Source of the DNA: Candidatus Brockarchaeota archaeon
Lineage (GTDB): Archaea > Thermoproteota > EX4484-205 > JAAOZP01
Length of the DNA: 64,000 bases
Direction: 5' to 3'
Assembly: GCA_017601245.1 (NCBI GenBank)
Contig: JAFNJB010000056.1
Coordinates: 4,002-68,001, forward strand
Shown here: one piece after another, positions 6,526 through 64,000 of the stretch
Numbering within the stretch: position 1 is the stretch's first letter
How the letters are laid out: each line of letters opens with the position of its first letter
The notes under the pieces: generated by a model
What the model was told of the DNA's origin: nothing
Databases searched by the model: none
The model's input: the letters and a program-made list of their open reading frames with translations, nothing else
Translations under genes and position numbers: made by a program

Positions 6526-7511
6526 AACTCGAGCATCAGCTCTCCTTCAACAGGTGTCCCAAAGTGTCTACCAACCTTCTTAGGCGCATATGCGATAACC
6601 CTGTCTCCAGGCTTAAGGTCTCTAACGCTAATGGAGCCGTCGGGAGTTACTATCCTTATCGTCTCAGCATCCTGTAGGAAGACTTTTCCACTGTTTTCGT
6701 TTAAACGGACCTCGACCATTCTCAAAGGCCTCTTTTCAACCTTCATCCTGCAGATTGTCAACGGCCTAGCCTCCCCTGATTTCGACACTGCGAGAACGCT
6801 GTCGCCTGATCTCAAGTCGCTCAAATAGGGAGTGGCCCCGTTAATACCCATGATGTACTGCGAAATTGCTCCAGCGTTAACCCTGAAGGGCCTGGGCTTA
6901 GTAAAACCGGATTCAAGCACCTCGGCTTCGACGAGTGTGAAGAGGGATGAGAAAGAGCCTATTAGCATTCCTTCTCCCGGACTCATTACGTCGCAAGTGT
7001 CTATGCACGCCCTCAAGCCCATCCCCGCTTCCGAAACCTTCTCTACAACGGCTTCTCTAAGCTTCAAAACCGCCTCTATGGGTCTCAATGACTCCGCAGC
7101 CTTAGATGCTTCAGAAGGAGACATGTTTAGAGCAACCCCGTCAACGCCAAGCTCTAAGGCCCTGAGGGCCAGCTTAGCTTCTTCGATAGTGGAAACCTCT
7201 GCTATAATCATAGTCCTACCCTTCAGCTTTGCTACAAGGTTCTCCCATGGAATAACCTTCCAATCGGATGTTTTGACTAGTATTTTCCTAAAGCCCATTT
7301 CAACAGCCTTTATCGCAGTCTCCTCATCCTCAGCGCTCTTAACCTCAAGCTCTAAGACGGCTGAAGAAGCGTCAGACCCTACGAGAGAATCCCCCTTAAC
7401 GAGCCTTAGCCTCTCCCCCTTCCCCTCAACAACGCCCATACTCCTAGAAACAACCCTATCAACACCCGGGATGTTCTGAAGCGTATCGTTGAAAGCCCAG
7501 ATCTCCTTCAA
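6522..7511 (-). CDS. 3-dehydroquinate synthase II (archaeal ADH-pathway DHQ synthase)
   Basis: About 330 aa, family-level resemblance to archaeal DHQS-II. Sits between aroD and the DhnA-type aldolase exactly as in archaeal aro operons. Confidence 0.7.
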   Translation of the reverse strand: MKEIWAFNDTLQNIPGVDRVVSRSMGVVEGKGERLRLVKGDSLVGSDASSAVLELEVKSAEDEETAIKAVEMGFRKILVKTSDWKVIPWENLVAKLKGRTMIIAEVSTIEEAKLALRALELGVDGVALNMSPSEASKAAESLRPIEAVLKLREAVVEKVSEAGMGLRACIDTCDVMSPGEGMLIGSFSSLFTLVEAEVLESGFTKPRPFRVNAGAISQYIMGINGATPYLSDLRSGDSVLAVSKSGEARPLTICRMKVEKRPLRMVEVRLNENSGKVFLQDAETIRIVTPDGSISVRDLKPGDRVIAYAPKKVGRHFGTPVEGELMLEF

Positions 7512-8314
7512 CCCTCAACAACCTCCATGGCGTAGTCTACGGAAGCACCTTCATGGACTATTGCCTTCAGCGCCTCAGCCATTTTCCTGGGCTCCTCGTG
7601 TTGGAAAACGTTCCTACCAATGGAGACTCCTGCAGCACCTGCTGAAATAGCGTCTGAAACCATTTTCAGGAATTCTCTCGTCGAAGAAGTCTTCGGACCT
7701 CCGGCTATTACTACGGGTATGTGAGAGGATTCGACTACGAGTTTAAAGGACTCAGGCGAGCCGGTGTAATTCGTCTTTACAACGTCTGCACCAAGCTCTA
7801 CGCCTATTCTCGCAGCGTGGGAAACCTCTTTTGGGGAATGTTCATCCTGGATCTTAGCGCCCCGTGGATACATCATTGCTAAAAGTGGCAGTCCCAGCCT
7901 ACTGCAAGCTCTGGAAGACCTTGCTAGGAAAGATATCTGTTCGCAATCCGTTTCCGAACCAACGTTAACGTGGAGTGAGAAGCCATCTGCACCGAGCGCG
8001 AGGGCCTCTAGCGGTGTTGCGCATGCAGTCTTCCTAAGTCTATCTGGGCTCAAGTCCGTCCCAGCGGAGCCGTGTATTATGAGGCCCATGCTTGAAAAAT
8101 CGAGGAGCTTCGCCCAGCCCTTGTGTACGACAACGGCGTCAACACCACCCTTCGAAAGCTCCTCTACCAGTCTCTTCATATTTTCTAAGCCCTTTACCGG
8201 ACCTATTGAAACACCATGGTCCATTGGGATTATTACCGTCTTACCGTCTTCTCTGAATATCCTCCTAAGCCTCCTTCTCTTAGCAGGATCCGGGTAATCT
8301 AGGATATTCTTCAT
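7508..8314 (-). CDS. 2-amino-3,7-dideoxy-D-threo-hept-6-ulosonate (ADH) synthase, class I aldolase DhnA family
   Basis: DhnA-type aldolase pattern (IIPMDHGVSIGP...HKGW...). Operon context with DHQS-II, asd and ask. Confidence 0.7.
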   Translation of the reverse strand: MKNILDYPDPAKRRRLRRIFREDGKTVIIPMDHGVSIGPVKGLENMKRLVEELSKGGVDAVVVHKGWAKLLDFSSMGLIIHGSAGTDLSPDRLRKTACATPLEALALGADGFSLHVNVGSETDCEQISFLARSSRACSRLGLPLLAMMYPRGAKIQDEHSPKEVSHAARIGVELGADVVKTNYTGSPESFKLVVESSHIPVVIAGGPKTSSTREFLKMVSDAISAGAAGVSIGRNVFQHEEPRKMAEALKAIVHEGASVDYAMEVVEG

Positions 8315-9351
8315 AGAAGCCTCATCTCCCTTAAGAGCTCGGCTACCAGTATCGAGCCTCCTGCAGCACCCCTCACAGTATTATGCGTAAGCGAGACGAA
8401 TTTAACCGTTAAAACACTGCATTTCCTAACCCTGCCTACGACAACACCCATACCGTCCTTGTAATCCCTATCAAGCCTCGTCTGAGGCCTATCCTCTTCT
8501 TCCCTAACCTGTATTACTGGGTCGGGTGCGGATGGTAAGCCCATTCTCTGCGGGAGCGGTTTAAACTCCCTCATTACCTTCTTAACTTCTTCAACATCCG
8601 CATCCTTCTCGAGTTCGACGAAGACATGTAGCATATGGCCGTCTATGGTTGGAACCCTGTTAACACTGGCTGAAATCGGAATATTGAGCGGTTTACCCGG
8701 TTCACCCAATATCTTATTAGTCTCGGTCTGAAGCTTCTCCTCCTCACCCTTTATAAAAGGTATGACGTTATCTATTATGTCTAGAGACTGGACGCCGGGA
8801 TAGCCTGCTCCACTCAACGCTTGTAGAGAGACCACTACTACTTTCTTCAAGCCGAAAGAGTCTAAGAGCGGTTTCAAAGGTATTACCAGAGGCATCGTCG
8901 TGCAATTAGACTTTGTAACAAGGAATCCTTTCCAACGCTTCTCCTCTTGCTGCTTCTCGATCAAGCTAAGATGGTCTGGATTGACCTCAGGGATTATCAT
9001 CGGGACTAGCGGGTCCATCCTAAAGGCGCTCGTTGTGGAGACAACTTTAAAGCCCTCTTCAGCAAGTTTCGGTTCTATTTCGACAGCAACCTCACTGGGG
9101 AGGCTTGAGAAAACGAGGTCAACGTCTTTCAAAGACTCCAGCCTAGTCTCTTGAACCACCATATCCGATACCTGTTCCGGCGGACTACCTCCGAGCAGCC
9201 AGTGCGCAGCCTCCTTGTATTTCTTCCCGACGCTCCTTTCCGAAGCTGTCAAAACCTTTATTTCGAAGAAAGGATGGTTGGAAAGGATTTTAACGAACCT
9301 TTGGCCAACTAGCCCGGTTGCACCGAGTATTGCTACGTTAATCTTCCTCAA
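8311..9351 (-). CDS. asd: Aspartate-semialdehyde dehydrogenase
   Basis: INVAILGATGLVGQRF N-terminal NADP site. Length 346 aa. Confidence 0.85.
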   Translation of the reverse strand: MRKINVAILGATGLVGQRFVKILSNHPFFEIKVLTASERSVGKKYKEAAHWLLGGSPPEQVSDMVVQETRLESLKDVDLVFSSLPSEVAVEIEPKLAEEGFKVVSTTSAFRMDPLVPMIIPEVNPDHLSLIEKQQEEKRWKGFLVTKSNCTTMPLVIPLKPLLDSFGLKKVVVVSLQALSGAGYPGVQSLDIIDNVIPFIKGEEEKLQTETNKILGEPGKPLNIPISASVNRVPTIDGHMLHVFVELEKDADVEEVKKVMREFKPLPQRMGLPSAPDPVIQVREEEDRPQTRLDRDYKDGMGVVVGRVRKCSVLTVKFVSLTHNTVRGAAGGSILVAELLREMRLL

Positions 9352-10555
9352 TCTTAAACGCCTCCGTTAACAATTTGAAAGCCTTCTCAACATGCTCTTG
9401 TGGCAAAACTATTATGAAGTAGGATCCTAGTGTTATGATGCCATGTATGTTTACGCCCTCCTTAGCCAATGGGGCAGATATCCTGTATAATACGCCCGGT
9501 GTTTCATGCAGGTCTGTCCCACGTATTACAATACCTCTTAGGCCCTGTCTAACAGCTAGCCCCACAGAGTCCCCGTCAGCCATGAACACGTCATGCATCC
9601 TCTGAGCATATTCCTCGGGCATATCGCCTTCGAAATAGGCCAGTACCTCCTTATTGTTAGACAAAAAGCCTAGGAACCTACCGTTTTTATTAACCGATTT
9701 AATTATTTCTATTGCCCTCATTACCGAATTCGGACTCCTTCCGACAAAGACCACTGCCGACAATGGTTTTTCGACAATCTCCATGCTTAATGGTGGCATT
9801 GAAGACATTATGAGAGTGCCCTCATTCCTCAGAGTTTTAGAATCGTAACTTATCACCCTGACTTTAAAAGAAGGCGGTAGATAACGGAGCGACGCCTTAT
9901 GTATGAACTTGACGCCCACGTCAGCAAGCGCTGCGAGTTCCTCTGTAGTCAATTCATCAAGTTTCTTCGCCGATTTTATCAACTTTGGATCAGCGGACAT
10001 TATTCCAGATACGCTCGTGACAAGTATTGTATCAGCAGGGTTTAATGCAGATGCTAATATGAAAGCCGTGGAGTCGCTGCCTCCCCTCCCAAGGGTTGTG
10101 ATGTTATTATTCGAGTCCTTACCTATAAAACCTGGGAAAACGACCACATCGTATTCTTTTAAAAGATTCGATACTACCTGCCTTATTCTTCTACAGGACT
10201 CGTCTACAATTATTCTTGCATTACCGTAATTGCTATCCGTTATTATCGGCCACTCTTCGTAAGAGGGGTCTAGGAAAGTCGCCTTAACACCCTTAGCATT
10301 CAAAGTCGAAGAAAAGACTCTTGCACTCGTCCTCTCACCCATGGAAAGTATTTCATCTAACAGCTTTGCATCGTTAGCATCTTTGAAAAGCTGTATGAGA
10401 GTATCTGTTGTAGAACCCATTGCAGAAACTACTACGACAACTTTATTCCCATTCGAGACTTCTTGAGCAACGAGATCAGCAGCATGCTCAACCCTCTCTT
10501 TCGTCGAGAGGGCCGCACCACCGAACTTGACGACAAGAAGACGGTTGGAACTCAT
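9338..10555 (-). CDS. Aspartate kinase (canonical, with C-terminal ACT domains)
   Basis: LVVKFGGAALS, VVVVSAMGSTTD, TTLGRGGSDSTA and SADPKLI amino-acid-kinase motifs. GGAGG Shine-Dalgarno 10-14 nt upstream of ATG. Confidence 0.85.
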   Translation of the reverse strand: MSSNRLLVVKFGGAALSTKERVEHAADLVAQEVSNGNKVVVVVSAMGSTTDTLIQLFKDANDAKLLDEILSMGERTSARVFSSTLNAKGVKATFLDPSYEEWPIITDSNYGNARIIVDESCRRIRQVVSNLLKEYDVVVFPGFIGKDSNNNITTLGRGGSDSTAFILASALNPADTILVTSVSGIMSADPKLIKSAKKLDELTTEELAALADVGVKFIHKASLRYLPPSFKVRVISYDSKTLRNEGTLIMSSMPPLSMEIVEKPLSAVVFVGRSPNSVMRAIEIIKSVNKNGRFLGFLSNNKEVLAYFEGDMPEEYAQRMHDVFMADGDSVGLAVRQGLRGIVIRGTDLHETPGVLYRISAPLAKEGVNIHGIITLGSYFIIVLPQEHVEKAFKLLTEAFKIEED

Positions 10556-10745
10556 TACAACAACCTCCTAAAAAGCCGAGCCTAATAATAAGTCCAGAAG
10601 AAAGCCTTCCCAAGAGTCTTTAAAGAGGCTCCGGAAGGCTTCTCCACGTTGATTTCGAGATTGAGCATGGGGCACCCTTTCTAAGGTGCATTTAAAAAGT
10701 TTACTAGAGATTATTAAACGTATGATTACTGCCGTTTATAAATTC

Positions 10746-12320
10746 TTATGTATTCGAGAACTTAAGCAGGAAATACTTGTATCCTGCAACAAGAGCCTCT
10801 TCAGCCGCTTTCAGAATGTTTGTGGAAACGCCGATTGTCGTCCACCTGCTCCCATTAGATTCAAACTCTGCGAGTATCCTCACAGATGCTGCTGTCCCAG
10901 ACGGAGCATCTATTTCCCTAACCCTGAAACCTATTAGGGAAACGTATGCAATCTTAGGGTAGATTGGGCTCAACGCCTTTTTTAAAGCGTTGTCGAAAGC
11001 ATTAACCGGGCCGTTGCCTTCTGCTGAAGCTGTTACGCTTATTCCTCCGACTTTGACTTTAACGATGCATTCCACAACCTGCCTATCGCCCAGCCAGGTT
11101 ACTATAGAAGTCCAGTGTTCGAGTTCAAAGAGTTGAGGCAGACCATAGAGAGACTCGTATATTAAAAGGAAGAGGTTTCCGTCAGCATTCTCGAAAACGT
11201 AACCCTTTGCCTCCAGCTCCTTTACTTTTTTAAGAGCTTCGAAGATTCTAGGGTCTTTCTTATCGATTTCAAAACCCATTTCCTGAGCCTTAGCAGCAAG
11301 ACTGGCAGTACCGGATTGTGAAGAGACGACTATGGCCCTTGTATTGCCGAAGATGGCTGGGTCTGTAAATTCATAAGCCTCCCTGTTCTTTATAACAGCA
11401 TCGCCATGTACACCCCCCTTGTGGGAGAATGCGTATTTTCCAACGAAAGGTTGACGAGGATTTTCTTCGAGAGAAGCAATATCCCTCAAGTACTGCGAGA
11501 CTGTGGAAAGCATCCTTAGGTTAACGTTCATCTTACAATTGAACCTAGTGGCCAGCACTCCTATGACTTGTATAAGGTCGGCGTTTCCACATCTCTCACC
11601 TATACCGTTTATAGTCCCATGTACCATTACAGCCCCAGCTTTGACTGCAGCAATAGTGTTTGCAACAGCCATTCCAGTATCGTTGTGCGCATGAATACCT
11701 ACGGGGGTTTTGAAAAAGTCTACAACCTTCTTCGTTATTTCATAAACCTCCAATGGATCTGAAGCTCCGCGTGTATCAGCCAAGACTAAGAAGGATGCAC
11801 CGGCCTTCTCAGCGCTTTTTAAAACCTCCATGGCGTAGTCAGGATTATCCTTGTAACCGTCGAAGAAATGCTCTGCGTCGAATACTACTTCCTTCCCACA
11901 GTCCCTCAAGTATTTGACACTATCGTAAACCATATTTAGATTCTCTTCAAGCGTCGTGTTTAAAACATCCTTAACGTGAAGGACCCAGGCCTTTCCGAAG
12001 ATTGTTACGGTCGGTATTCCTGGTTGCACTAGGTATTTCAAATCAGCGTCTTCCTCAACCTTCACCATTGGTTTACGTGTCCTTCCGAAGGTTGAGATCC
12101 TAGCTCTAAGCCTATACTTTAAAATCCTTTGGAAAAAAGCGAGGTCTATCGGATTAGTTTCATTAGGCCAACCCCCCTCTATGTAATCCACTCCAAGGTC
12201 GTCGAGCTTAAGGGCTATCTTAATCTTATCTTCGAGCGAGAAGTTAACGCCTACGGCTTGGTTACCATCCCTAAGCGTAGTGTCGAAAACCAGTATTCTA
12301 TTCTCATCTTGACTAATCAT
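10746..12320 (-). CDS. leuA: 2-isopropylmalate synthase / (R)-citramalate synthase family
   Basis: [23 protein letters not shown] motifs, C-terminal LeuA dimerisation/regulatory domain. Length 524 aa. Confidence 0.8.
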
Positions 12321-42570: not shown

Positions 42571-42672
42571 CGCTGGGGAGGGGATTTGAACCCCTACGGC
42601 GCGTAAGCGCCACAAGCTTACTGAAAACAGGTTCTCCAGGCTTGCGCCTTAGCCAGGTTCGGCCACCCCAGC
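42571..42672 (-). tRNA. tRNA-Ser (anticodon GGA) with long variable arm and about 15-nt intron in the anticodon loop; no encoded CCA
   Basis: Hand-folded: acceptor GCUGGGG/CCCCAGC, G73, T-arm AGGGG-UUCAAAU-CCCCU, variable hairpin GGCGC-UUAC-GCGCC, anticodon stem CAAGC/GCUUG enclosing 22 nt (7-nt loop CUGGA.. plus intron). Confidence 0.6.
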
Positions 42673-53724: not shown

Positions 53725-54352
53725 CTTCCACAGCCTCCTGCGGCGCCTCTACTAACTGCACTTCATCCGGAGGAACAGCCTCTTTCAATATTTTGACCTT
53801 GACACCCATGACTCCCTGCGGCAGTAGTACACTTGCCTTACCTACTTTGACATACTTCATCGCAGGGTCTCCGGCTGCAGGCATATAGCCGAAGCTAAAC
53901 TTCTCAAACCTGGCCCTATCCGTGGTAAGCTTACCAGCTATCCTTATCTCGCAGCCTATCGCACCCGCGGCAGCTACCCTACGTAGAGCAACCCTAGCAG
54001 CCCTACGGTATTTAACACCTTTCTCAAGAGCCCTACATATCATTTGAGCAACAAGCTGGGGCTCTAAATCGGGATTCTCAACCTCCGCCACGTTTACCTG
54101 CGGGTTCTCAAGATTGAACTTCTCCTTGAGGATGTCTTGAATCTCCCTAATCCTCCTACCATCCGGGCCTATGACGAACCCAGGTTTGCTCGTGTATATT
54201 GTTACTACAAGACCCATTGGGACATTAAGAACCTTACAGCCAACATACCCCCCGTCTTTCAAATATTCTTTCAAGAAATCGTCGATCTGCTGATGGAGCT
54301 TACACAGGTTGAGAACTCTCTTGTAAAATATTAGCTTCTTCTTACTCGACAA
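53702..54352 (-). CDS. rps3: 30S ribosomal protein S3
   Basis: KH domain plus uS3 C-terminus. Confidence 0.9.
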   Translation of the reverse strand: MSSKKKLIFYKRVLNLCKLHQQIDDFLKEYLKDGGYVGCKVLNVPMGLVVTIYTSKPGFVIGPDGRRIREIQDILKEKFNLENPQVNVAEVENPDLEPQLVAQMICRALEKGVKYRRAARVALRRVAAAGAIGCEIRIAGKLTTDRARFEKFSFGYMPAAGDPAMKYVKVGKASVLLPQGVMGVKVKILKEAVPPDEVQLVEAPQEAVEVGKAEGQ

Positions 54353-54353
54353 T

Positions 54354-54869
54354 TCAACCAGCCTCCTCTACAGCCAGGACCTCTACGTGCGTGAGCGTTT
54401 CAAACCTGGGCGTGGCTCTCCCAAAAGCCCTGGGCATGTATCTTTTCAACTTCCTACCCCTGTGGACAACAACTCCCTTTATCCTCATCCTATCCGGGGA
54501 GAGGCCCTTGTACTCAGCATTAGCCTCAAGCTGGGATATTAGCCTAAGGAAGAAACGGGCCGTTTTAACAGGATATCTCCCCGAGTCGAATCCTTCAATC
54601 CCCCTCCTATGTGGAACCTTCTTCCTATACCTCCGGAAGGGGACGGGGGTCTCCATTCTCACCACGGCCTCAAGCCTCCTCCTAGCCTCTGGAATCTTAA
54701 GACCCTTGATGAACCTAGCCACTTCTACGGCATGCTTAGGGGATATCCTAACCTCTCTGAGACTAGCCTTAGCCGAACGCGACTTATCCACTTCCACCAA
54801 ACTATACTTGAAACTCGGCAAACCCAACACCGGTTTAGCTCGCGGAGGCGAGACAGAAATAGACACCAA
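54354..54869 (-). CDS. rpl22: 50S ribosomal protein L22
   Basis: uL22 pattern. Confidence 0.85.
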   Translation of the reverse strand: MVSISVSPPRAKPVLGLPSFKYSLVEVDKSRSAKASLREVRISPKHAVEVARFIKGLKIPEARRRLEAVVRMETPVPFRRYRKKVPHRRGIEGFDSGRYPVKTARFFLRLISQLEANAEYKGLSPDRMRIKGVVVHRGRKLKRYMPRAFGRATPRFETLTHVEVLAVEEAG

Positions 54870-54938
54870 TTATTAAATATTTTGTCATCCTATAAGGAAG
54901 GCTTAAATCCCCATATGTAGCCATTTGAACGATGAAAA

Positions 54939-55160
54939 ATGAGTAAGGAAGCTGAGGCTGAGCCCAGCATACGTAGAGCTGTTAACGTCGACAAGCTTGA
55001 GAAAACCCCGGACGGTTATGTTGCACATGTAAAGTCGCTCGAAGGGTTGAGGAAGATCGCCACCATACTGAAGAAGCCCATGGTCTCCGTTAAGGAGAGT
55101 GGGGAATACCTAGTCATCGACGATAGGATAACCTACATCTGGAAGGAAACCAGCAAGTAA
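54939..55160 (+). CDS. Hypothetical 73-aa protein encoded antisense within the S19-L22 spacer
   Basis: Clean ORF with balanced composition. AT-rich upstream, T-rich tract downstream (55170-55190). Confidence 0.35.
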   Translation: MSKEAEAEPSIRRAVNVDKLEKTPDGYVAHVKSLEGLRKIATILKKPMVSVKESGEYLVIDDRITYIWKETSK

Positions 55161-55188
55161 TACGTTTTAGAACCCTTTCTATTTTTTC

Positions 55189-55599
55189 TTATTTCAAAGG
55201 CACATAAGTAGACGACTTGCTAGCGCCAACACCCGGCTTACCGTGAACAACCCTCTTGTTCGTTATCGCAAACTCGCCAAGGTAGTGCCCAACCTTGTCT
55301 AGGGTTATCTCAACCGGTATGAAGTCCTTACCGTTATGAACCTCTATCGTTAAGCCAACCATCTCAGGTAGAATAGGCATATCCCTCCTATGAGTCCTTA
55401 TCCTCTTCGTCTGAGTACCCGTCTTAGCCATCTCCGCCTTAATCTTCCTAATCTTCTCCAGAAGCTTCCTGTTCTCAGGATGCAAACCCCTCCTCAGAGT
55501 CCTCCTAATACGGGCTGGGAGGAGCCTCATCAACTCGTTCATCGAAAGACTATTCAGCTCCTCGAGCGTCTTACCCCTATACGTTGGAATGAGAGACAT
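55189..55599 (-). CDS. rps19: 30S ribosomal protein S19
   Basis: uS19 signature ...[34 protein letters not shown]. Confidence 0.85.
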
Positions 55600-55774
55600 C
55601 CACTACTTTTCCTAACCTCGGGGTATAATAACCTTTCCCTTGAATAAGCCGGTTATTTAGCAATATTAGGACAAGGACTTAGTATATAGCGAGTATTACT
55701 ATCAATGGTACAAAGCACTTTTACATAAGCATAATACGGTCGATTGCCTTAGACACTTGTGTATTAAGACTTAA

Positions 55775-56488
55775 ATGTTAGGCTTCTTCAGGGAGGAGAA
55801 GCAGATGCCTCATAAAAATGCAGTTGCATATGGCACAGCATCGTGTATAATGGGAATCATGATACTTTTTGCAAGCATCTTTTTGTTTTCACAATACATT
55901 TCTAAAACGGCGAATCAGTACTTAGCAATAACAGTAATAATAATAATGCTAACAGCATCTTCTTTAGTGATTCTATCTGGAGCATATTTAAGGCACTTAG
56001 GCAAGACTTGGCCAGTTACAGTCCCTATAAAGACAGCAGGAGGAACTAGTCCGAAAAAGCAGTTTCAAAAAACCCCTTCTTTGCAAAATGTGACATATCA
56101 TGAGACAGTATCTAAAAGCCAAGAGGCTACTAAGATTTGTCCTAAATGTGGGACTGCAAACGATGCAAAATACAAGTTCTGCTTTAGATGCGGAACAATT
56201 TTATTTGAAATTCCTATGGAAACACTGCCAAGTACTGAGATTGAAGTTGAAGAATTTGTTTTCTGTCAAGTCTGTGGTAAAAAGCTAGCAAAGAATTCGA
56301 AATACTGCAGTTCTTGTGGAGCACCACTATCTGGGGCCGAAACGCTTCCTCCACCACCCCCACCACCAGACATAGAGAAAAGATTAGAAGAATTAGAAGA
56401 AAAGATTAGGAGTTTAGAGGAATCGTTAAAGAAAATCACGGAATCGAAGAGTTTTGAAAACAAAAATGAAACAAGCATATTTGAATAG
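55775..56488 (+). CDS. Membrane protein with two zinc-ribbons, poly-Pro linker and C-terminal coiled coil
   Basis: Two TM helices. CPKCG..(14)..CFRCG and CQVCG..(11)..CSSCG. PPPPPPP. EELEEKIRSLEESLKK. Confidence 0.5.
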   Translation: MLGFFREEKQMPHKNAVAYGTASCIMGIMILFASIFLFSQYISKTANQYLAITVIIIMLTASSLVILSGAYLRHLGKTWPVTVPIKTAGGTSPKKQFQKTPSLQNVTYHETVSKSQEATKICPKCGTANDAKYKFCFRCGTILFEIPMETLPSTEIEVEEFVFCQVCGKKLAKNSKYCSSCGAPLSGAETLPPPPPPPDIEKRLEELEEKIRSLEESLKKITESKSFENKNETSIFE

Positions 56489-56556
56489 AAGGATACAAAG
56501 AATACAATCATGAAAAATTGTTAAACCTGCAAGTTGGAAATAGTAGATAAGAAAGC

Positions 56557-57263
56557 TTAACATGGTAAAGAAAAACTCTCGCCTGTTAATCGAAAACAGC
56601 TTCTCAGCTTACCCGTTAATATAGGTAGCGAAAACCACAACCCTATGATGTGAAACCACATTTTAACGTTATACTGCTTATGAATATCATATGCTTTTTT
56701 AAAGAATTCACCCCATGCTTTCATAAAACTATTCATAGAATCAATGCGAGAGTTAATAAGTTGTTTAGGCTCCATCTGTTCCTCCCCAATGGCTAGACCA
56801 GTTCTTCTGATATCTTCTTCCGCTATCAGTCTATCTTCAGGATTATCCTTTGAGAACAGATTTTTAGTAAGCAATATCTCCGGCTCACTTCCTATCCCAT
56901 AAATCTCTAGGACTTCAACAGGCCGGAAAATCTTTAAGCCCAGGTCCTAAGGTCCTATGATCAACCATTATGTTGTCTCGACACTTCCTAATCATAACTT
57001 TTACCCTATTCATTAAGTAGGAGACAATTGGATTCTTCTTAGCCTCCTCAACCTCTTCTTCCCCAAGCGTAAGCAGAATCGATAATTGCAGGAATATACT
57101 TCAATCCCTTACTTTTCATGTACCGAGATCCTATTACCCTCATCCACATCTTCACTTTTTCTACTATATTCCTCGGAGTGTTAGGTGCAGGCTTAATCAC
57201 CATCCAGTATTCAATCATTCTTTCCTGCTCTCCATATTTCTCTCCACTTATAAAAACCTCCAC
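56557..57263 (-). pseudogene. Decayed paralog (two frame fragments) of the 196-aa gene at 59180-59770
   Basis: 57048-57263 matches N-terminus MIEYWMVIKPAP... and 56557-56874 matches C-terminus ...DSMNSFMKAWGEFFKKAYDIHKQYNVKMWFHIIGL. The middle is out of frame. The last 104 nt are identical to the intact copy. Confidence 0.5.
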
Positions 57264-57432
57264 TATGTCTGGTTATTGTCTCATAAGCTCAACCAGGTAG
57301 TTAAGTAATTCCTTGGTTTCGGAAGTCTGGGGAGCCTGGAGGAAGCTGTAGACCAGCATCCAGCCATTTCTTATAAAAAATGAACCATAGCCAGTAACAT
57401 TTTTAAGCAAAAATGAACAATATAACATTATA

Positions 57433-58764
57433 ATGGAGCCACTTTCCAAAAGGTTTGTGGAGGACAGGTTGAAGGTTCAGAATCCCTGGTGGGAATTGAA
57501 AACTATTCCCGCGGAACTCGCAGGCAGGAGGAGAGATGTGGATTTTGAAGAGATGTCTGAGGGAAAGGAGATTAGAATCCTGTTCGGAGTCAGGAGATGT
57601 GGGAAGTCAACCCTGCTTTTTCAAATCATGAGTCACCTGGTTGAGCAGGGTGTAGACCCGTTAAACCTGCTGATGTTAAACTTCGATTTTGAAAGGTTTA
57701 GAAAAATTCCTCTCGATGAGGTTTTCAAAGCGTATTTGGAGTTATCGGGAGCCTCGCCGAGAAACGTCAACCTGTTTCTTGATGAAGTTCATTTCCGGGA
57801 GGATTGGCCACGTTTTACGAGAAGATTGTACGACATGAAAGAGGTTAACAGGATTTTCATCACGGATTCTTCCTCAAAGCTCCTGAAAGGCGAGTATGCA
57901 AGGATTCTAACTGGAAGAACGATTAAACACGAGGTTTTTCCGCTCTCATTCAGAGAGTTCTTGAGTTTCCGCGGGATCTCAGCGGAGGTTAAGCCTCTTT
58001 CCTACAAGACTGAAGCTAAGGTTAAAAACCTGTTGCGAGAATACTTAGAGTTCGGCGGGTTCCCGGAGGTTGTTCTTAAGAATGAAGTCCTCAGGTACAG
58101 GATTCTCCAAGAGTATTTCAGCGACATAATCTACAAAGATGTGACGGAGAGGTTTAACCTTGATGCAAGCATTACGTATGAAGTTGCAAAGTTCCTAATT
58201 ACAAACGTGTCTAAATACGTTACTCTAAGGTCGTTGAGAAAAGGTTTTGGAATAGGCCTGGAGACAGCGTCTAGGATTCTGCAGGCCTTAGAGGAGGTTA
58301 GGCTGATAAATCTCTTAAGACCATTCTCGCTTTCCCTAAAATCTCAAGTTAAGGGGATAAAGAAAGCATACGTTATAGACACCGGACTGTCGAACGCAGC
58401 CGGGTTCAGGTTTAGCGAGAACTTTGGGAAACTGGTTGAAAACACAGTCTTCCTGCACTTGAGGAGAATGCAGTCTAAAAATCCTCTGCTCGAGATTTTC
58501 TACTGGAGGGACTACCAGCAGAACGAGGTTGACTTCGTTGTTAAGAACGGGGTTGAAGTTAAACGATTGATCCAAGTAACTTATGCCTCTGGCAGGGATG
58601 AGATTGAGAAAAGAGAGATAAGAGCTTTAACTAAGGCAAGCGACGAACTAGGATGCAATGAACTCTCAATAATAACCTGGGATTATGAGGATGAAATCAA
58701 AACCAACGATAAAACGATAGAATGTATCCCGTTATGGAAATGGCTGCTTTCCAAGCCTCAGTGA
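57433..58764 (+). CDS. AAA+ ATPase of the DUF4143/COG1373 family
   Basis: Walker A GVRRCGKST, Walker B LFLDEVH, C-terminal DUF4143-like module. Confidence 0.7.
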   Translation: MEPLSKRFVEDRLKVQNPWWELKTIPAELAGRRRDVDFEEMSEGKEIRILFGVRRCGKSTLLFQIMSHLVEQGVDPLNLLMLNFDFERFRKIPLDEVFKAYLELSGASPRNVNLFLDEVHFREDWPRFTRRLYDMKEVNRIFITDSSSKLLKGEYARILTGRTIKHEVFPLSFREFLSFRGISAEVKPLSYKTEAKVKNLLREYLEFGGFPEVVLKNEVLRYRILQEYFSDIIYKDVTERFNLDASITYEVAKFLITNVSKYVTLRSLRKGFGIGLETASRILQALEEVRLINLLRPFSLSLKSQVKGIKKAYVIDTGLSNAAGFRFSENFGKLVENTVFLHLRRMQSKNPLLEIFYWRDYQQNEVDFVVKNGVEVKRLIQVTYASGRDEIEKREIRALTKASDELGCNELSIITWDYEDEIKTNDKTIECIPLWKWLLSKPQ

Positions 58765-59004
58765 CAGCATGAAACAGTCCCTGTCTCTACCACGAGTTTA
58801 TTATACAGTTCTCTTACCGTCTTCTCTATTCTTTTTCCATCATTCTTAACAACGTGTGAAAACTTGTTAATAAGAGCATACGGAAAGGGGAAAAATTGGA
58901 AGGGGTTACATTATTCAGCGTAGAGCACAAACAGTTTTAAAATGATCTAAATGGATACAACAAACCGTAGGAATCGTAGAATTAAGAAAAAGTATAGAAA
59001 TATT

Positions 59005-59130
59005 TATCCAGATGCTTGTCTAACCTTCTTCCTACCAGTCTTCCTGGGAGCAATCAAACCAACCTTAGCACCAGGCGGAGCATTACGGCTAACAGAAGTA
59101 GAACCCCCTACGTGGTAGTGATAATATTCT
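59005..59130 (-). pseudogene. rpl2: Relic of the 3' end of ribosomal protein L2 (about 40 codons)
   Basis: Own translation: EYYHYHVGGSTSVSRNAPPGAKVGLIAPRKTGRKKVRQASG*. Matches the universal uL2 C-terminus (H.HGGG...STVSRNAPPG.KVG.IAARRTGR). Bounded by stop codons. Confidence 0.5.
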
Positions 59131-59179
59131 TACGAGAAAGTATGTGCTCGCATCCAAATCGCATGCTTACTTCACTCAG

Positions 59180-59770
59180 CTATAATCCTATGATGTGAAA
59201 CCACATTTTAACGTTATACTGCTTATGAATATCATATGCTTTTTTAAAGAATTCACCCCATGCTTTCATAAAACTATTCATAGAATCAATATGATGGTCG
59301 ATACGTTGATCAGAAGTCATCTGCTTCTCTTGACAAGGTATTCCGAATCTCCTAATATCCTCTTCAGCTATCATTCTGTCCTCTAGATTATCTTTAGAGA
59401 AGAAAACCTTCGTTAGCAGCATCTTTAATTCATCATCTACTTCTTTAACCTCTAAGACTTCGATTGGCCAGAAAATCTTTAAACCAGGACCATTAGTTTT
59501 TGGATCAACTCTAATATTGTCTGGGCATTTCCTGATAATAACCTTAACTTTATTCATCAAGTAAGAAACATAAGGATCCTTCTTAACTTCCTCGACTTCT
59601 TTCTCTCCATAAGCATAAGCCGAGCGAATAATAGCAGGAACATATTTCAATCTCTTTCTCTCCATAAGCCAAGAAGAACCCGTTGCAGGCATCCATATTT
59701 TCTCTAACTCCTCTTTTATTTTCCCTCGTATTTTAGGCGCAGGCTTAATCACCATCCAGTATTCGGTCAT
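59180..59770 (-). CDS. Hypothetical 196-aa protein, co-transcribed downstream partner of the giant gene
   Basis: 6-nt spacing from giant ORF stop. Has a decayed paralog 2.5 kb away. Confidence 0.5.
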   Translation of the reverse strand: MTEYWMVIKPAPKIRGKIKEELEKIWMPATGSSWLMERKRLKYVPAIIRSAYAYGEKEVEEVKKDPYVSYLMNKVKVIIRKCPDNIRVDPKTNGPGLKIFWPIEVLEVKEVDDELKMLLTKVFFSKDNLEDRMIAEEDIRRFGIPCQEKQMTSDQRIDHHIDSMNSFMKAWGEFFKKAYDIHKQYNVKMWFHIIGL

Positions 59771-59776
59771 TTTACT

Positions 59777-62700
59777 CTATCCTTCATATTTCACGCCACC
59801 TATAAAAACCTCTATAACGTCTGGATATCTCCTCATGAGCTCAACTAAATATTCAAATAGCCTCTCAGCTTCTGGCTCTTGGGGAGCGTGCAGAAAGCTG
59901 TAAATCAGCTTCCAATTATTTTCATCAGCAATTTCAAGATATTTATCAGCTTGGCCTATAAGGTTTCCTGATTCTTCATCTCCGTGTTTACATTCTACTA
60001 TTGCTATCCTTTTGTCTGGTGTTTCCGTTTTAAAATCGAAGTATACATATCTCCTATTACCTAAGTCATATAGACTCTCCTCCTCCAGAATGATATACCC
60101 TAATTTTTCTAAGAGTTCTTTTGTAAACAGCTTTGCAGCAACATGTTGAGACTCGCTTAACACTTTATCTGGAAGAGGCTTGCTTAAGCTTATTACCTTC
60201 CTATGAATCCCCTTGTTATCCTTATATTCAACAACTATTGTATCTTTAAATGCGTACTCGAAAACTTGATTATTTTCACTCAACTTAATCTTAAGCTCCC
60301 CATAGTATTTGATCGGGTTTATTTCCGGTGCTCGTGTTCTTATCGCTAAAGCCAGCTTTGAGGATACTGATTTACCGTCCCTGCCTACATCAATACGAAA
60401 CAGGATTTTTTCACTACTATGCAGAGTTACCTCGAGAATTGGACCATACCCGCTGAGCTCTCTGAAACGGGCTTCGCTTACCTTGAAACCGTTACCGTCG
60501 CTCATACCCTCGACACCGTAGAACTTCAAGTATTCCCCGGAGAGTTCTGCTCTAACACTTCCATCAGAGCTTACTGCGCTAAGCCCGTTCTTCCTTACGA
60601 TTAGTATTCCGAGAACCTCTTCAGCCTCTTTAATCTTGAACTCTGCGTCCGCGCTCTGAGTCCACGCTGAATCTACTCCACCGTCAACCCTACGGTATAC
60701 TATTCCAAGTACCGCGTCCCTATTGCTCAGCTCTTCTCCAAGCCTACGATACTCTTCGCCTATAATTCTCTTCATCATCCCGCTTACGTCAAGGTACTTC
60801 TGGCCACTCCTTATCTCTATGACGTGCTCATCATTGCTTAAGAACACTATTGGTTCTTGAGGGATCCTCCTGTTTAGAGTTATGATTCCACCATACCTGT
60901 CTGAGCCCTCCTCCCTGAGGAATAGGAGCCTTGCCACCTCGCCTCCAGCACCATCTCTCACGGTTTTCAGCTCAACCTCGCCTATCATCGTTCTCCCCCC
61001 ACCGGAGACCAGCATCAGCCTTCCTCCCTCAGTTACTCTGAGCTCGAGCTGCTCCCCGTCTGCATTCGTAACCATGAACCTGATTAGGGCTGAGCCTGCG
61101 TACTCATCCAGTCTCCCCGCGAGCCCCTCAATAATCCTGCCGGTTCTAGTATCAACTAAGTATGCATTGAAGCCGTCTGCCTTCACGAATTTCGACGGGT
61201 ATCTGGCAAGGAAATCATCTATGGTCGCCGGCTTCAAGACTGTTAAGTATGTGCAGCCACTTCTTATCCTGCCGGTTGTTTCCACGGAGGAGAAGCGCAG
61301 GCTCTCCTGCCCATTCACAATCCTCCTTATCTTGTCTACGATAATGCTGCCATCATCAGGATCGTGGACTAAAACAAGGTAAACACCCTCGGGGATATTC
61401 TTAGGAAGCAACAGCCTATCCGAATCGTGGGAGGTTGCAATGAATATTATTGCTCCGCTTTCAAGACTTGCATGCCACGTGTTGAGAAGCCCAGGATCCT
61501 TAACTATAGTATTCAAGAAGGCTTTTGCAACAGTTTCTCCGTAGCTCTCTTTGACTACCAGGTAGGTGTTTAATAGCCTAAGCCTGTTTTCAAAGCTTTC
61601 CCCAACCTTAGCCAGGGCTCTCCCAATGTTTTCAAGCTCTTCCGGGTTTAGCTCAACTGTTCTGGAGAGGAGCCTAGTAGCCTTAGGCAGAGACCACTGG
61701 TCTCCGAGCCCCAGCCAGTTTAGAAGTTCTTCTCCAAACATTCTCGACTTCCGAAATACTCTGCCTATGTCTTCGACAGCCTCGTCTCCGCAACCCGCCC
61801 AAACCGAGACGATTACTCTAACAACCCTACCGCCTTCGACTCTCAGCTCCTCCAGAGAGTATTCTTCAAAGACCAGCCCGATGACGTCCAGTATCTTCCT
61901 CGCGCTCTCCCTTCTCGGAACATTCTCTAGCACTTGCTTCGAAAGCCTTGAGGAAGCGTCAATGGTTTCCTCGAGAATGGAGGGGTCTTCTCCCACCTTC
62001 TCCAGCAGGCTTCCAATGGCTTCGCCGAACCCCCTGCTATACTTGTTTCCCAGAAGGAGGTCTACGATCCTTCCTGCGGAGCCCCTTATCCTCCCCCAGG
62101 TGAGAGTAATAGCATCCCATACGGCTGGTGTTACCCAGTTGTAGACCCCCCTTGCTATTGTTCTCAGTATCTGGCTTGTTGTTAATCTTTGACCTATTCT
62201 CTCAGCCTTCACTCTGTTAACCATTACGAAAAGCGTGACGTAGAGCATACAGGAGACTACTGCGCCTGTGACTCTTCCCCTCGCGTATCCTATCTTATAC
62301 TGCTTCTCAAGCTCGTTCTCAGCTATTGGTTCCTTTAGACCCAGTGCTATTCTTATCTCATCCAGGCTGACGCCGAAGGCGAGGTTTGAGAAGACGTTAA
62401 GCCCTATGTTGCTCATAGTTTCATTTGCTTCTCTCCTCGACGCTACTGCAAGCTCCATGCATTCGGCAGCATGCTCAACCTCGCCTCTGGCCAGGAATTC
62501 TCCAGCTCGTTTTTCAAAGGCCTCAGCGAAGGCGAGCATTTCCTCCCTAGCTTTGTAGGCTTCTTCAACATCTGAAGCCACTTCCATGAGGTTCGACAAT
62601 ACGTCAATACCCAGCATGAGATAGTAAGCATATCTCACGTATGCCTTTGGGATCAGGAAGCTTACTGCAATCATCATACCAGCGGTAATAGCTATCCCCG

Positions 62701-64000
62701 GCAGCTTTGTTAGCAGGCCATCCCAGAAGCCCTTCCAAAACACCGCCGTCTTAAGGGCGAGGGAAACCTTTACTGCCGCAACTACTCTACCATCTTTAAC
62801 GAGTTCGAAAACAGCCTCTCCAACCGCGGGCTCCCGCTGGATTAGTAAAACGGAGCCCGTAGAAGTTTTGTTTAGAGTAATGCTCCCGCTGCTCTCTCTG
62901 GTCTGAGTAAAGAAGAGGAAGTGGTTTGTAGCCGTCTTAAGCCTAAGCGAGTAGCTTACGTTAGTGTTTGCATAATTCCTCAGGGCTATGCCGTGTAGTA
63001 ACTCCCCCCTGTTAATTTTCAGAGGACTGTAGAATAGTTTGATGGATTTGCATTCGCCGATTGTCCTACTCGTTACAGTGTATCCCCAATCCACCTCGCC
63101 CGAGTCGATGAAAATGCTGTTCCCCCTCTTCCACCCGAGCCTAGCCAACTGCTCATACTCTTCGCTTGAAACCCATACCGTCTCATTGCTTACTTTTTCT
63201 CCGACGAACCTTACACTCCAACCCATAGCTCCGCTCTGGTTAAGCTTCCCGTAGAAGGGATGTTGGGAAAGAACCTTCAACTCGTCTTCGCTCAAAACCC
63301 TGCTTAGGATCGTTTTCTCAATGCCCGTGGTCTTATTGAAACACAGCAGAAACGTGTTCTTGAAGTCGTCTACGATTAATTCCACCGTTAAGCTTCCACC
63401 ATTAGTCCACTTTATCCAATGCTCCGAGACATACTCGCCCTCCCTCAAGACAAGCCAGGGTAGAACTATCCATCCGCCACCGTGCCCTATAACCAGCTTA
63501 ACCCGCTCAGTATCCTTCGTAACCTTCAGGTTCTTACGCATATGGAGCCAATAGTAGTCAACCTCCCTCCCGTTGAAATTAATCCTGTAAGCCTTATGCT
63601 CTAGAATCTCCAAGCTTAACACAATGCCGTAGAGGGGCATGTTGAAGAATAACCGTGAGGAAACAGGACTACCCAGGTCCGGGAGGTAAGCATTGATCAC
63701 ATTACCTTTAAAATCGCCATCTACGCTTAACACTGCCTTCGATAAACCACCTGTCTCGCCAGCGTAAGTTACGTTGTAGAGCTTGCGGGCATTTAGCGAA
63801 ATATTATAGTACCTTATGCAGGTCACGTTGTAAAGCTTGACTCTCTTCTTAACACCCTTAACCTCGTAGTAAGCAGAGGGTAGAGGGAAATTACAGACTA
63901 ACGGGATTTCAACAGAAACCTCCCCGTCGTCAAGATTACGTGAAACACGAAGATTGGAGTAGTCGACTAAAACACGATTGTCATTGATTTGAAGCTCCCT
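59777..64000 (-). CDS. Giant membrane protein (longer than 1400 aa, N-terminus beyond window) with sequon-rich extracellular N-domain, TM helices and cytoplasmic C-terminal PD-(D/E)xK nuclease-like domain
   Basis: Frame stays open from 63826 to 64000, so the track GTG start is internal. Hydrophobic helices GIAITAGMMIAVSFLIP, YYLMLGIDVLSNL and VTGAVVSCMLYVTLFVMV. C-terminus YVYFDF..PDKRIAIVECKHG..QADKY. Confidence 0.7.
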   Translation of the reverse strand, partial: RELQINDNRVLVDYSNLRVSRNLDDGEVSVEIPLVCNFPLPSAYYEVKGVKKRVKLYNVTCIRYYNISLNARKLYNVTYAGETGGLSKAVLSVDGDFKGNVINAYLPDLGSPVSSRLFFNMPLYGIVLSLEILEHKAYRINFNGREVDYYWLHMRKNLKVTKDTERVKLVIGHGGGWIVLPWLVLREGEYVSEHWIKWTNGGSLTVELIVDDFKNTFLLCFNKTTGIEKTILSRVLSEDELKVLSQHPFYGKLNQSGAMGWSVRFVGEKVSNETVWVSSEEYEQLARLGWKRGNSIFIDSGEVDWGYTVTSRTIGECKSIKLFYSPLKINRGELLHGIALRNYANTNVSYSLRLKTATNHFLFFTQTRESSGSITLNKTSTGSVLLIQREPAVGEAVFELVKDGRVVAAVKVSLALKTAVFWKGFWDGLLTKLPGIAITAGMMIAVSFLIPKAYVRYAYYLMLGIDVLSNLMEVASDVEEAYKAREEMLAFAEAFEKRAGEFLARGEVEHAAECMELAVASRREANETMSNIGLNVFSNLAFGVSLDEIRIALGLKEPIAENELEKQYKIGYARGRVTGAVVSCMLYVTLFVMVNRVKAERIGQRLTTSQILRTIARGVYNWVTPAVWDAITLTWGRIRGSAGRIVDLLLGNKYSRGFGEAIGSLLEKVGEDPSILEETIDASSRLSKQVLENVPRRESARKILDVIGLVFEEYSLEELRVEGGRVVRVIVSVWAGCGDEAVEDIGRVFRKSRMFGEELLNWLGLGDQWSLPKATRLLSRTVELNPEELENIGRALAKVGESFENRLRLLNTYLVVKESYGETVAKAFLNTIVKDPGLLNTWHASLESGAIIFIATSHDSDRLLLPKNIPEGVYLVLVHDPDDGSIIVDKIRRIVNGQESLRFSSVETTGRIRSGCTYLTVLKPATIDDFLARYPSKFVKADGFNAYLVDTRTGRIIEGLAGRLDEYAGSALIRFMVTNADGEQLELRVTEGGRLMLVSGGGRTMIGEVELKTVRDGAGGEVARLLFLREEGSDRYGGIITLNRRIPQEPIVFLSNDEHVIEIRSGQKYLDVSGMMKRIIGEEYRRLGEELSNRDAVLGIVYRRVDGGVDSAWTQSADAEFKIKEAEEVLGILIVRKNGLSAVSSDGSVRAELSGEYLKFYGVEGMSDGNGFKVSEARFRELSGYGPILEVTLHSSEKILFRIDVGRDGKSVSSKLALAIRTRAPEINPIKYYGELKIKLSENNQVFEYAFKDTIVVEYKDNKGIHRKVISLSKPLPDKVLSESQHVAAKLFTKELLEKLGYIILEEESLYDLGNRRYVYFDFKTETPDKRIAIVECKHGDEESGNLIGQADKYLEIADENNWKLIYSFLHAPQEPEAERLFEYLVELMRRYPDVIEVFIGGVKYEG

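Follow-up and report, generated by a model that had tools for sequence, protein, structure and literature searches.

A run of ribosomal protein genes from secY to rps19 in a Candidatus Brockarchaeota archaeon, a hot-spring member of the Thermoproteota, raises the question of whether the ribosomal cluster stops at rps19 or continues beyond it. The run lies in a stretch of 64,000 nucleotides (nt) from contig JAFNJB010000056.1, the whole of which is referred to here as the window, and the genes expected next to rps19, those for L2, L23, L4 and L3, were not seen there. The initial annotation, made from the letters of the window, proposed that the superoperon was truncated after S19 and that accessory genes had replaced L2-L23-L4. 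Judged from gene order, the cluster is not truncated. Rather, an accessory island of 8.9 kb splits it at the junction of rpl2 and rps19, and the apparent truncation and replacement is an artifact of the window edge. Taken as a whole, the account favored here, in which an intact cluster was split at a recombination-prone ancestral hot spot with two layers of a gene cassette, has a probability of roughly three in four.

The window was compared with public contigs (L001, L002, etc.), all of which are metagenome assemblies. The comparison with L001, a contig of the Brockarchaeota metagenome-assembled genome (MAG) GCA_038853335.1, covered the last 10 kb of the window only, and positions 54001–64000 were 100% identical to it by blastn. 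L001 and L002–L004 are assemblies of the window species, and the rps19 protein was present unchanged on 22 public contigs. The source hot-spring samples are those of the MAGs GCA_038853335.1, GCA_038862705.1 and GCA_038867495.1 and of JGI 3300008000, and a scan with one genome for each species assigned the sequence to Brockarchaeota. On the operon strand of L001 and L002, the gene order is L4-L23-L2, a giant gene, p196 (encoding a protein of 196 amino acids, aa), a relic of L2, a DUF4143 ATPase gene (reverse), pseudo-copies, a Zn-ribbon gene (reverse), S19, p73 (reverse), L22, S3 and onward. The same order was found in L003 and L004 from the rpl2 3′ end onward. The L2 of the source and conspecific contigs is intact, with 243 aa and both Pfam L2 domains, and its gene immediately precedes the giant gene and shares its orientation. 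On L002, which carries the full-length giant gene, the distance from the L2 stop to the S19 start is 8.9 kb, and two genes on the opposite strand lie inside it. The rpl2 and rps19 genes are thus not contiguous.

In the window, the open reading frame (ORF) of the giant gene remains open to base 64000, and the part inside the window encodes aa 104–1510. Given that this ORF is open at the edge and that L4-L23-L2 adjoin it on the identical contig, the live rpl2 is placed about 0.5 kb past the window edge. Thus, rpl2, rpl23 and rpl4 appeared to be missing because the window stops inside the first gene of the island. Searches with tblastn found no L3, L4, L23 or other L2 sequence within the 64-kb window, where the sole L2-like stretch corresponds to aa 206–243 of L2. 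The reported absence of L2-L23-L4-L3 is therefore correct for the window but not for the source contig, where L4-L23-L2 adjoin the giant gene. The reported replacement of L2, L23 and L4 is contradicted, as all three adjoin the far side of the island in the same orientation on both the identical and the conspecific contigs. More generally, where a gene cluster appears to end in an island close to the edge of a window, it may continue beyond that edge.

The content and order of the cluster are canonical and on one strand, L4-L23-L2 ... S19 ... L22-S3-L29-Rpp29-S17-L14-L24-S4e-L5-S14-S8-L6-L32e-L19e-L18-S5-L30-L15-SecY. L3 upstream of L4 was seen only in relatives (L008, L009, L011, L094, L095, L102, L104, L105, and L107). 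The standard content and order of the archaeal S10/spc-type cluster (L3-L4-L23-L2-S19-L22-S3-L29-...-L15-SecY) are kept here. Different from the standard cluster, however, the 3′ end of rpl2 is duplicated, and a second, phylum-specific break formed by p73 isolates rps19 from rpl22. The features of the window from rpl22 to its edge are as follows.

54354–54869, minus strand: rpl22 (ORF listing, Pfam)
54939–55160, plus strand: p73, 73 aa, between S19 and L22, with a weak DUF5305-like match below the Pfam cut-off
55189–55599, minus strand: rps19, 136 aa (Pfam Ribosomal_S19, E value 5.6e-30)
55624–55639, minus strand: element resembling a B recognition element and TATA box (BRE/TATA-like), GGGAAAGGTTATTATA (GGGAAAGG TTATTATA on the minus strand), ending 24 nt before the rps19 ATG
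55775–56488, plus strand: Zn-ribbon membrane protein gene, 237 aa (Pfam Zn_Ribbon_1 and DZR)
56497–56556, minus strand: short segment common to L008 and L010, 78% identity (blastn, L002 9047–9106 versus L008 8663–8725 and L010 21–83)
56638–57218, minus strand: p196 pseudogene, the older "type 2" copy, split over three frames (tblastn, three fragments, 57–72% aa identity)
57234–57368, minus strand: remainder of a second giant-protein gene, covering its final 45 aa (tblastn against giant aa 1464–1508, 62% identity)
57433–58764, plus strand: AAA_14 and DUF4143 ATPase gene, intact, 443 aa (Pfam)
58981–59114, with coding positions 59007–59120, minus strand: L2 relic, the duplicated rpl2 3′ end (translation, blastn, tblastn, alignments)
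59180–59770, minus strand: p196, intact, 196 aa (ORF; no known family)
59777–64000, minus strand, running off the window: giant protein gene, 1510 aa in full (ORF; full length on L002)

The Zn-ribbon membrane protein, the pseudogene, the DUF4143 ATPase, the duplicated 196-aa gene and the giant protein named in the initial annotation were all found (ORFs, Pfam, and tblastn), and measurements of G+C content (GC) agree that a compositionally distinct accessory island is directly upstream of rps19. The GC of 55600–59776 was 0.396, while that of windows of equal size (4.2 kb) elsewhere in the window was 0.467 ± 0.011, with a minimum of 0.446. The low-GC island (55.6–59.8 kb) is thus more than six standard deviations below the remaining window. 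The drop in GC reported from about 55600 onward holds for these 4.2 kb, across whose boundary the composition is not uniform, but not for the giant gene, whose GC of 0.475 is host-like. The Zn-ribbon protein has two N-terminal hydrophobic segments and double zinc ribbons, and its gene has a GC of 0.378 and a GC at third codon positions of 0.32. Positions 56638–57368 hold a decayed and frameshifted copy of the giant end (45 aa) and p196, whose nt identity to the intact cassette of giant gene and p196 was about 73%. The direct repeats linking the p196 pseudogene region were 77 and 71% identical at the nt level. The segment at 56497–56556 is possibly a remnant of older spacer sequence. Finally, tRNA and Rfam scans of the island returned no match, and thus no tRNA target is present in it.

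The stretch called an L2 relic proved to be genuine by translation and tblastn. Positions 59007–59120 of the minus strand translate to YHVGGSTSVSRNAPPGAKVGLIAPRKTGRKKVRQASG followed by a stop, which is the C-terminus of L2 (residues 206–243). The last 112 nt of the live rpl2 recur unchanged in the relic, from CACGTAGGGGG through the stop codon, and the left boundary of the match is sharp. The right edge consists of an 8-nt indel (a deletion in the relic) and about 16 further matching nt, after which the similarity decays. In blastn searches, the relic was 100% identical to L001 over 95 nt and 92.4% identical to L002–L004 over 145 nt. The direct repeats on L002 are at 1003–1147 and 6489–6622, of which the latter corresponds to window 58981–59114, and the repeat has an overall length of about 145 nt. 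Between its two copies are 5.5 kb that hold only the giant gene and p196, and one copy completes rpl2. For the initial annotation, an intact L2 at this place in closely related genomes would have meant that the relic was misread. The intact L2 found beyond the island comes near to that case, but the relic itself had not been misread.

An identical left junction, ATATTATCACTAC/CACGTAGG, was found in species L008, whose S19 and L2 are 95 and 92% identical to those of the window species at the aa level. The relic of L008 is 66 nt long, with five differences from its own rpl2. Because L008 shares the left junction, the duplication is older than the split of the two species. The two relics are best explained by one old duplication and a subsequent gene conversion, which would have made the relic identical to rpl2 in the window lineage recently.

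Among the relatives, the same junction is occupied as follows.

L011: L2, 200 bp, S19 (the empty site)
L009: L2, 630 bp with a fragment of the older cassette, S19
L008: L2, truncated DUF4143, p196, relic, a gene with a weak NucS_C-like match, S19
L007: contig start inside DUF4143; the visible part is window-like, with a Zn-ribbon gene 40% identical
L095: restriction-modification system between L2 and a pair of giant C-terminus and p196

Behind rpl2, more distant Brockarchaeota carry a full-length giant gene (L101) or only its C-terminal 60–266 aa, plus p196. The giant gene or its C-terminal part stands with p196 beside L2 in L094, L101, L104, L105, and L107, where no S19 was found within 8–10 kb. 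Genes for URO-D-like and PAC2 proteins were found upstream of S19 in L012–L018. No L2 was found in the available upstream flank of these seven loci, which ranged from 1.8 to 10 kb (10 kb for L013–L015, L017, and L018), and chaining of L094 and L095 to L012–L018 revealed no overlap. On the sequences compared, the split is old and lineage-wide in Brockarchaeota, and the rpl2–rps19 junction is a hot spot.

In L008, the place of the Zn-ribbon gene is taken by a gene at 8669–9652 on the minus strand. It encodes 325 aa with a D...E-V-K...QxxxY motif, and its NucS_C-like match is weak (E value 2.5e-4, below the cut-off). On this weak match, the gene may be a third type of nuclease-like gene at the junction.

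In the outgroups, the L2–S19 spacing ranged from 18 to 190 nt, including 56–87 nt in L019–L022 and one Sulfolobaceae locus. In many loci of Pyrobaculum and Desulfurococcales, however, L2 was 2.9–7.3 kb upstream or was missing from as much upstream sequence as was available (up to 10 kb). Given that many other loci are broken there, a break between rpl2 and rps19 is not exceptional in Thermoproteota, and an accessory island that splits the ribosomal cluster is an arrangement already known in this phylum. Unlike these other Thermoproteota gaps, the one described here contains conflict-type genes. On the loci compared, what is particular to the Brockarchaeota site is its variable conflict-type content, ranging from 0.2 to 8.9 kb among close relatives. 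The junction thus appears as a hot spot across an archaeal phylum, holding anything from a 200-bp spacer to a 9-kb island among close relatives and leaving rps19 isolated and, as predicted below, separately promoted. In L049, a Desulfurococcales MAG, positions 6587–9922 between rpl2 and rps19 encode an AAA_5 (MoxR-like) ATPase and a VWA_CoxE protein. Gaps of 3.4–3.8 kb between rpl2 and rps19, similar in size to that of L049, were also found in L048, L053–L055, and L062. The content of the L049 gap would be another lineage-specific occupant of the junction.

In archaeal promoters, the TATA box precedes the start by about 25 nt. The element at 55624–55639, with its TATA-like box at 55624–55631, is at such a position, and the motif GGRAAAGRKTWTWATA recurs with unchanged spacing in each of the 13 Brockarchaeota loci aligned, including the empty site of L011 (consensus GGGAAAAGGGTTATATAGCC). 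The element is thus predicted to be the promoter of a leaderless or short-leader rps19 mRNA. Given that the motif is also present at L011, where L2 is only 200 bp upstream, the predicted promoter is independent of the island. The earlier proposal that rps19 relies on an AT-rich promoter region at 55600–55774 instead of read-through from L2 is consistent with the promoter-like element found inside that region, but this element is not a consequence of the island, as the 13 loci including L011 demonstrate.

The other side of rps19 is also unusual. The S19–L22 gap is 319 nt in the window, where it holds p73, so that rps19 and rpl22 are not contiguous either. The gaps of Brockarchaeota ranged from 331 to 372 nt, whereas those of nearly all other archaeal loci with a detected L22 were no longer than 76 nt, with exceptions of 178 and 1120 nt. 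p73 was 86–100% identical at the aa level in all Brockarchaeota loci L007–L018 and absent from the other archaea examined. The run from secY to rps19 had been described as continuous on the minus strand and ending at 55599. rps19 (55189–55599), L22, and S3 to SecY are indeed all on the minus strand, but the run is not continuous, because p73 is on the plus strand between rps19 and rpl22. The position of p73 also implies a separate promoter for rpl22. With its own predicted promoter upstream and the convergent p73 at its 3′ end, rps19 looks effectively like a single-gene, monocistronic unit.

How the island came about is less certain than its position. In the favored account, a hot spot between rpl2 and rps19 would be ancestral to Brockarchaeota, and its core would be a cassette of giant gene and p196 right after rpl2. 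Of an older cassette, most of the giant gene would have been lost where the DUF4143 ATPase gene now sits, and the p196 copy would have decayed. Insertion of a younger, full-length cassette would then have duplicated the last 112 nt of rpl2 and about 33 nt downstream, so that one flank kept a complete rpl2 and the other the relic. The younger insertion most likely came about by homology-facilitated illegitimate recombination or by an unequal exchange, with the conserved ribosomal genes of a cassette-bearing donor as the anchor. Such donors are plausible, because the cassette adjoins rpl2 throughout the phylum. A donor fragment with rpl2, the giant gene and p196 may have crossed over by homology at its left and joined illegitimately 112 nt before the stop of the recipient rpl2, and later gene conversion may have made the relic identical to rpl2.

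Other explanations were weighed against this account. That the cluster was truncated upstream of rps19, with L2-L23-L4-L3 lost or moved and an accessory island in their place, is highly improbable. The 64-kb window lacks L3, L4, and L23 and has L2 only as a 38-aa fragment, and S19 is more than 10 kb from any L2 in more distant Brockarchaeota. However, L4-L23-L2, with an L2 of 243 aa and both Pfam domains, are directly upstream of the giant gene on the identical and conspecific contigs, and the giant ORF simply runs off the window. Truncation would hold only if all four assemblies were chimeric at one and the same position. A single local tandem duplication of a unit made up of the 3′ end of rpl2, the giant gene and p196, with DUF4143 inserted later into the second giant copy, would produce both the relic and the second cassette copy, and the order on the operon strand (L2 end, giant, p196, L2 end, DUF4143, giant end, p196) is as expected from it. 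Nevertheless, we regard it as improbable. Identity between the two cassette copies of the window is only about 73%, against 100% for the L2 repeat here and 92% for that of L008, and L002 and L008 have diverged by only about 5% at p196. Given that p196 is 95% identical between L002 and L008, cassette copies of 73% identity are separate layers instead of products of one recent tandem duplication, which was rejected as the source of both copies on the contrast between 73% in the cassette and 92–100% in the L2 repeat. Moreover, the cassette fragment of L009 is nearer the older copy (75%) than the younger one (69%), which points to two cassette lineages.

The strongest competitor is that the 5.5-kb unit of giant gene and p196 is a site-specific integrative element, for which the 3′ end of rpl2 would be the attachment site, the 112-nt copies would be attL and attR, and the replacement end of rpl2 would be carried by the element. 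The perfect 112-nt direct repeat, its sharp left edge and its overlap with the 3′ end of a gene are as expected for such an element. In addition, an 8.2-kb segment of three genes in L090, including a distant giant homolog (P0013), has at its two ends copies of a 78-nt piece, 95% identical to each other, that duplicate the 3′ end of an aldehyde dehydrogenase gene; several contigs are interrupted at the repeat; and in L008 rpl2 is joined directly to the sequence that follows the relic in the window, as would be expected at a cassette-free site. However, searches of Pfam, NCBIfam, and PHROGs gave the giant protein, p196 and the L090 neighbors no signature of an integrase, transposase or other recombinase, and terminal inverted repeats are absent at the ends of the cassette, where equally high scores were reached by 136 of 500 shuffles. 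The repeat lacks a sharp right edge, with its 8-nt indel, 16 matching nt and decay; relatives of the cassette were not found on viral contigs; and the paralogous cassettes L087 and L089 have no flanking direct repeats. Finally, the cassette is beside rpl2 phylum-wide, which looks like vertical descent. Site-specific integration is thus considered unlikely, albeit a good deal less so than tandem duplication or truncation.

Several points weigh against the favored account of ribosomal gene-anchored recombination. Its route is not demonstrated, and the perfect 112-nt direct repeat fits site-specific integration too. L001 has a scaffold gap of 277 N at 992–1268, right behind the 3′ end of rpl2; L003, L004, and L005 begin at the repeat or about 30 nt before it; and L099 starts inside the giant gene. 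Population heterogeneity or a mis-join through the 112-nt repeat therefore retains some probability. The position of L3 in the window genome is taken from relatives, as the fetched part of its own contig does not show L3, and promoter function and operon boundaries are predictions from sequence. The contig ends linked to the repeat are compatible with either assembly breaks or coexisting variants with and without the cassette. L003 and L004 begin about 30 nt upstream of the 112-nt repeat, inside the 3′ end of rpl2, and both run continuously from unique rpl2 sequence through the repeat to the giant side, while L002 spans both repeat junctions. These contigs back the join between rpl2 and the giant gene, yet they hint that cassette-bearing and cassette-free variants may coexist. 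A search of a metagenome-contig collection with the junction patterns (L2 to giant versus L2 to DUF4143) returned no match; the collection evidently lacks these records, as a known Joint Genome Institute (JGI) contig was also not returned, while the patterns matched L002–L004 and L008 locally.

The most interesting parts of the island are the uncharacterized pair of giant protein and p196 and the duplicated rpl2 end that marks its insertion. The giant protein has an N-terminal hydrophobic signal or anchor at aa 10–28 and strong hydrophobic segments at aa 536–554 and 680–698. With these two or more further segments, its C-terminus may be on either side of the membrane, and a delivery domain was not found. 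Its C-terminal domain has a conserved D1425...E1439-x-K1441 motif. D1425, E1439, and K1441 were invariant in five class-1 sequences and D/E-x-K in seven class-2 sequences, and many distant family members end in similar D...E-x-K-type motifs. The predicted structure of the giant protein had a predicted local distance difference test (pLDDT) score of about 50 (about 50–60 at the motif strands), and at this low confidence the order of its C-terminus was alpha-beta-beta-beta-alpha-beta-alpha, with the motif residues on predicted strands of this unit; with a pLDDT of 50, the model was too poor for a fold search. On motif and model, the C-terminal ~110 aa look like a PD-(D/E)xK nuclease. Searches of PDB sequences and Pfam profiles with the C-terminus returned no significant match to a known nuclease family, and hhalign comparison of class-1 with class-2 C-termini yielded an E value of 0.0017 at 15% probability.

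The giant protein and p196 had no match in Pfam, NCBIfam, PADLOC or PHROGs, and six distant members of the giant family had no significant Pfam domain. A word-indexed search identified 13 relatives of the giant protein and 15 of p196, the latter all in Brockarchaeota or Thermoproteota metagenomes. An exhaustive search with the conserved giant core identified 43 representatives among 1.8 billion proteins, while a scan of viral contigs with the giant and p196 profiles identified no relatives. The AlphaFold2 (AF2) model of p196 had a pLDDT of 91.9, and Foldseek found no match to it in PDB with an E value below 0.001. Thus, the pair belongs to a very small, unannotated family.

The two parts of the giant protein differ in conservation. 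The N-terminal ~900 aa of giant proteins were 57–70% identical, while the C-terminal ~450 aa were about 30% identical or unalignable. Along the cassette, GC falls from 0.50 in the N-terminal two thirds of the giant gene to 0.42 in its C-terminal 1 kb and 0.36 in p196. All six full-length loci examined have a co-oriented partner gene of 196–444 aa that is no more than 50 nt from, or overlaps, the giant stop, and in pairwise comparisons the similarity of the partners tracks that of the giant C-termini. Between P0010 and P0013, the values were 32% for the N-terminal part, 48% for the C-terminal part and 52% for the partner. In addition, remnants of C-terminus and p196 without a full giant gene adjoin rpl2 in many lineages and form tandem arrays on some contigs. 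The truncation points of the orphan C-terminus copies varied (aa 1245, 1341, 1402, 1450, and 1464). From these comparisons, giant and p196 appear to be an uncharacterized family with a conserved N-terminal part and a swappable nuclease-like C-terminal module plus partner, which resembles polymorphic toxin-immunity systems.

Two other loci of this family are of note. L087 and L089, on one 120-kb contig of GCA_038870495.1, are two paralogous cassettes of giant and partner with different C-terminal classes, one of which is surrounded by ParE and HicA/HicB toxin-antitoxin genes. In L090, the duplicated sequences are at 1866–1943 and 10152–10229, with the same signature as the rpl2 relic, and the unannotated genes of the segment encode 394 aa, 1565 aa (P0013), and 444 aa.

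The pair shares with polymorphic toxin-immunity systems, such as Rhs and CdiA/CdiI (Zhang et al., PMC3482391), a large protein with a signal or anchor, a conserved N-terminus and a variable C-terminus. It also shares a small downstream gene that co-varies with the C-terminus, orphan copies of C-terminus and partner that are located downstream or arrayed, and a GC that falls along the gene. The pair differs in several respects: no known toxin, pre-toxin, secretion or immunity domain was detected in giant or p196; most full-length C-termini inspected share the D...E/Q-x-K motif type instead of many unrelated folds; the truncation points of orphans vary, with no single conserved recombination motif; and the giant C-terminus may be on either side of the membrane. 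An addictive nuclease-inhibitor pair would look similar. A hypervariable module of Thermococcales, centered on a large Ig-domain protein with variable downstream genes, was read as a conflict or self-nonself system (PMC8416519). Similar to that module, the island has a large upstream protein and then variable downstream genes, although homology was not detectable and no Ig domains were detected in the giant protein.

It is conceivable, though we would put it forward only tentatively and with more doubt than belief, that giant and p196 constitute an undescribed archaeal conflict system of toxin-immunity or addiction-like type. In such a system, a membrane-anchored giant protein would carry an exchangeable PD-(D/E)xK module that is neutralized by its partner. 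The system would have been located behind the L3-L4-L23-L2 operon ever since Brockarchaeota arose, and its turnover, i.e., module swaps, arrays of orphan nuclease ends with partners, and duplications of the rpl2 3′ end, would have broken the linkage of rpl2 and rps19. Toxin-immunity-like systems have barely been explored in archaea. If true, this proposal would provide tractable genes for conflict between cells in uncultured hot-spring archaea and would show the erosion of a near-universal operon.

The DUF4143 ATPase matched PDLC04787 of the PADLOC candidate defense system PDC-S01 over its full length (E value 4.1e-100). On this match it is a candidate defense gene, and PDC-S01 itself is only a candidate system. 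A unit of 1.55 kb that contains this gene (57233–58782) was 93% identical at the nt level to a segment of L092, whereas flanking housekeeping genes were 72–77% identical (blastn). This difference indicates horizontal movement of the unit. Similar to defense islands and hot spots, the junction holds a PDC-S01 match with signs of horizontal movement here and, in relatives, a restriction-modification system (L095) and a gene with a weak NucS_C-like match. Different from defense islands, the location inside a ribosomal protein cluster is unusual, and the window contains no validated defense system. In L092 (GCA_038885155.1), positions 9600–12310 hold a partial p196, p196, DUF4143 (reverse), a giant-end remnant and a p196 fragment. 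This block is directly upstream of the S13-S4 operon of another lineage, so that the same module borders a different ribosomal operon.

Archaeal integrated elements that target tRNA or protein genes duplicate the 3′ end of their target gene. The locus shares with them a direct repeat over the 3′ end of the target, one copy of which belongs to an intact gene and the other to a displaced fragment. It differs from them in having no integrase, a cargo of two genes, one diffuse repeat edge and apparent vertical inheritance beside rpl2. With regard to tRNA genes, the only match of the tRNA and Rfam scans was at 42571–42672 on the minus strand, where Rfam reported a tRNA of 45.8 bits over 102 nt that was not called by ARAGORN. 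This sequence, immediately upstream of the S13 gene region, probably encodes an archaeal tRNA with an intron.

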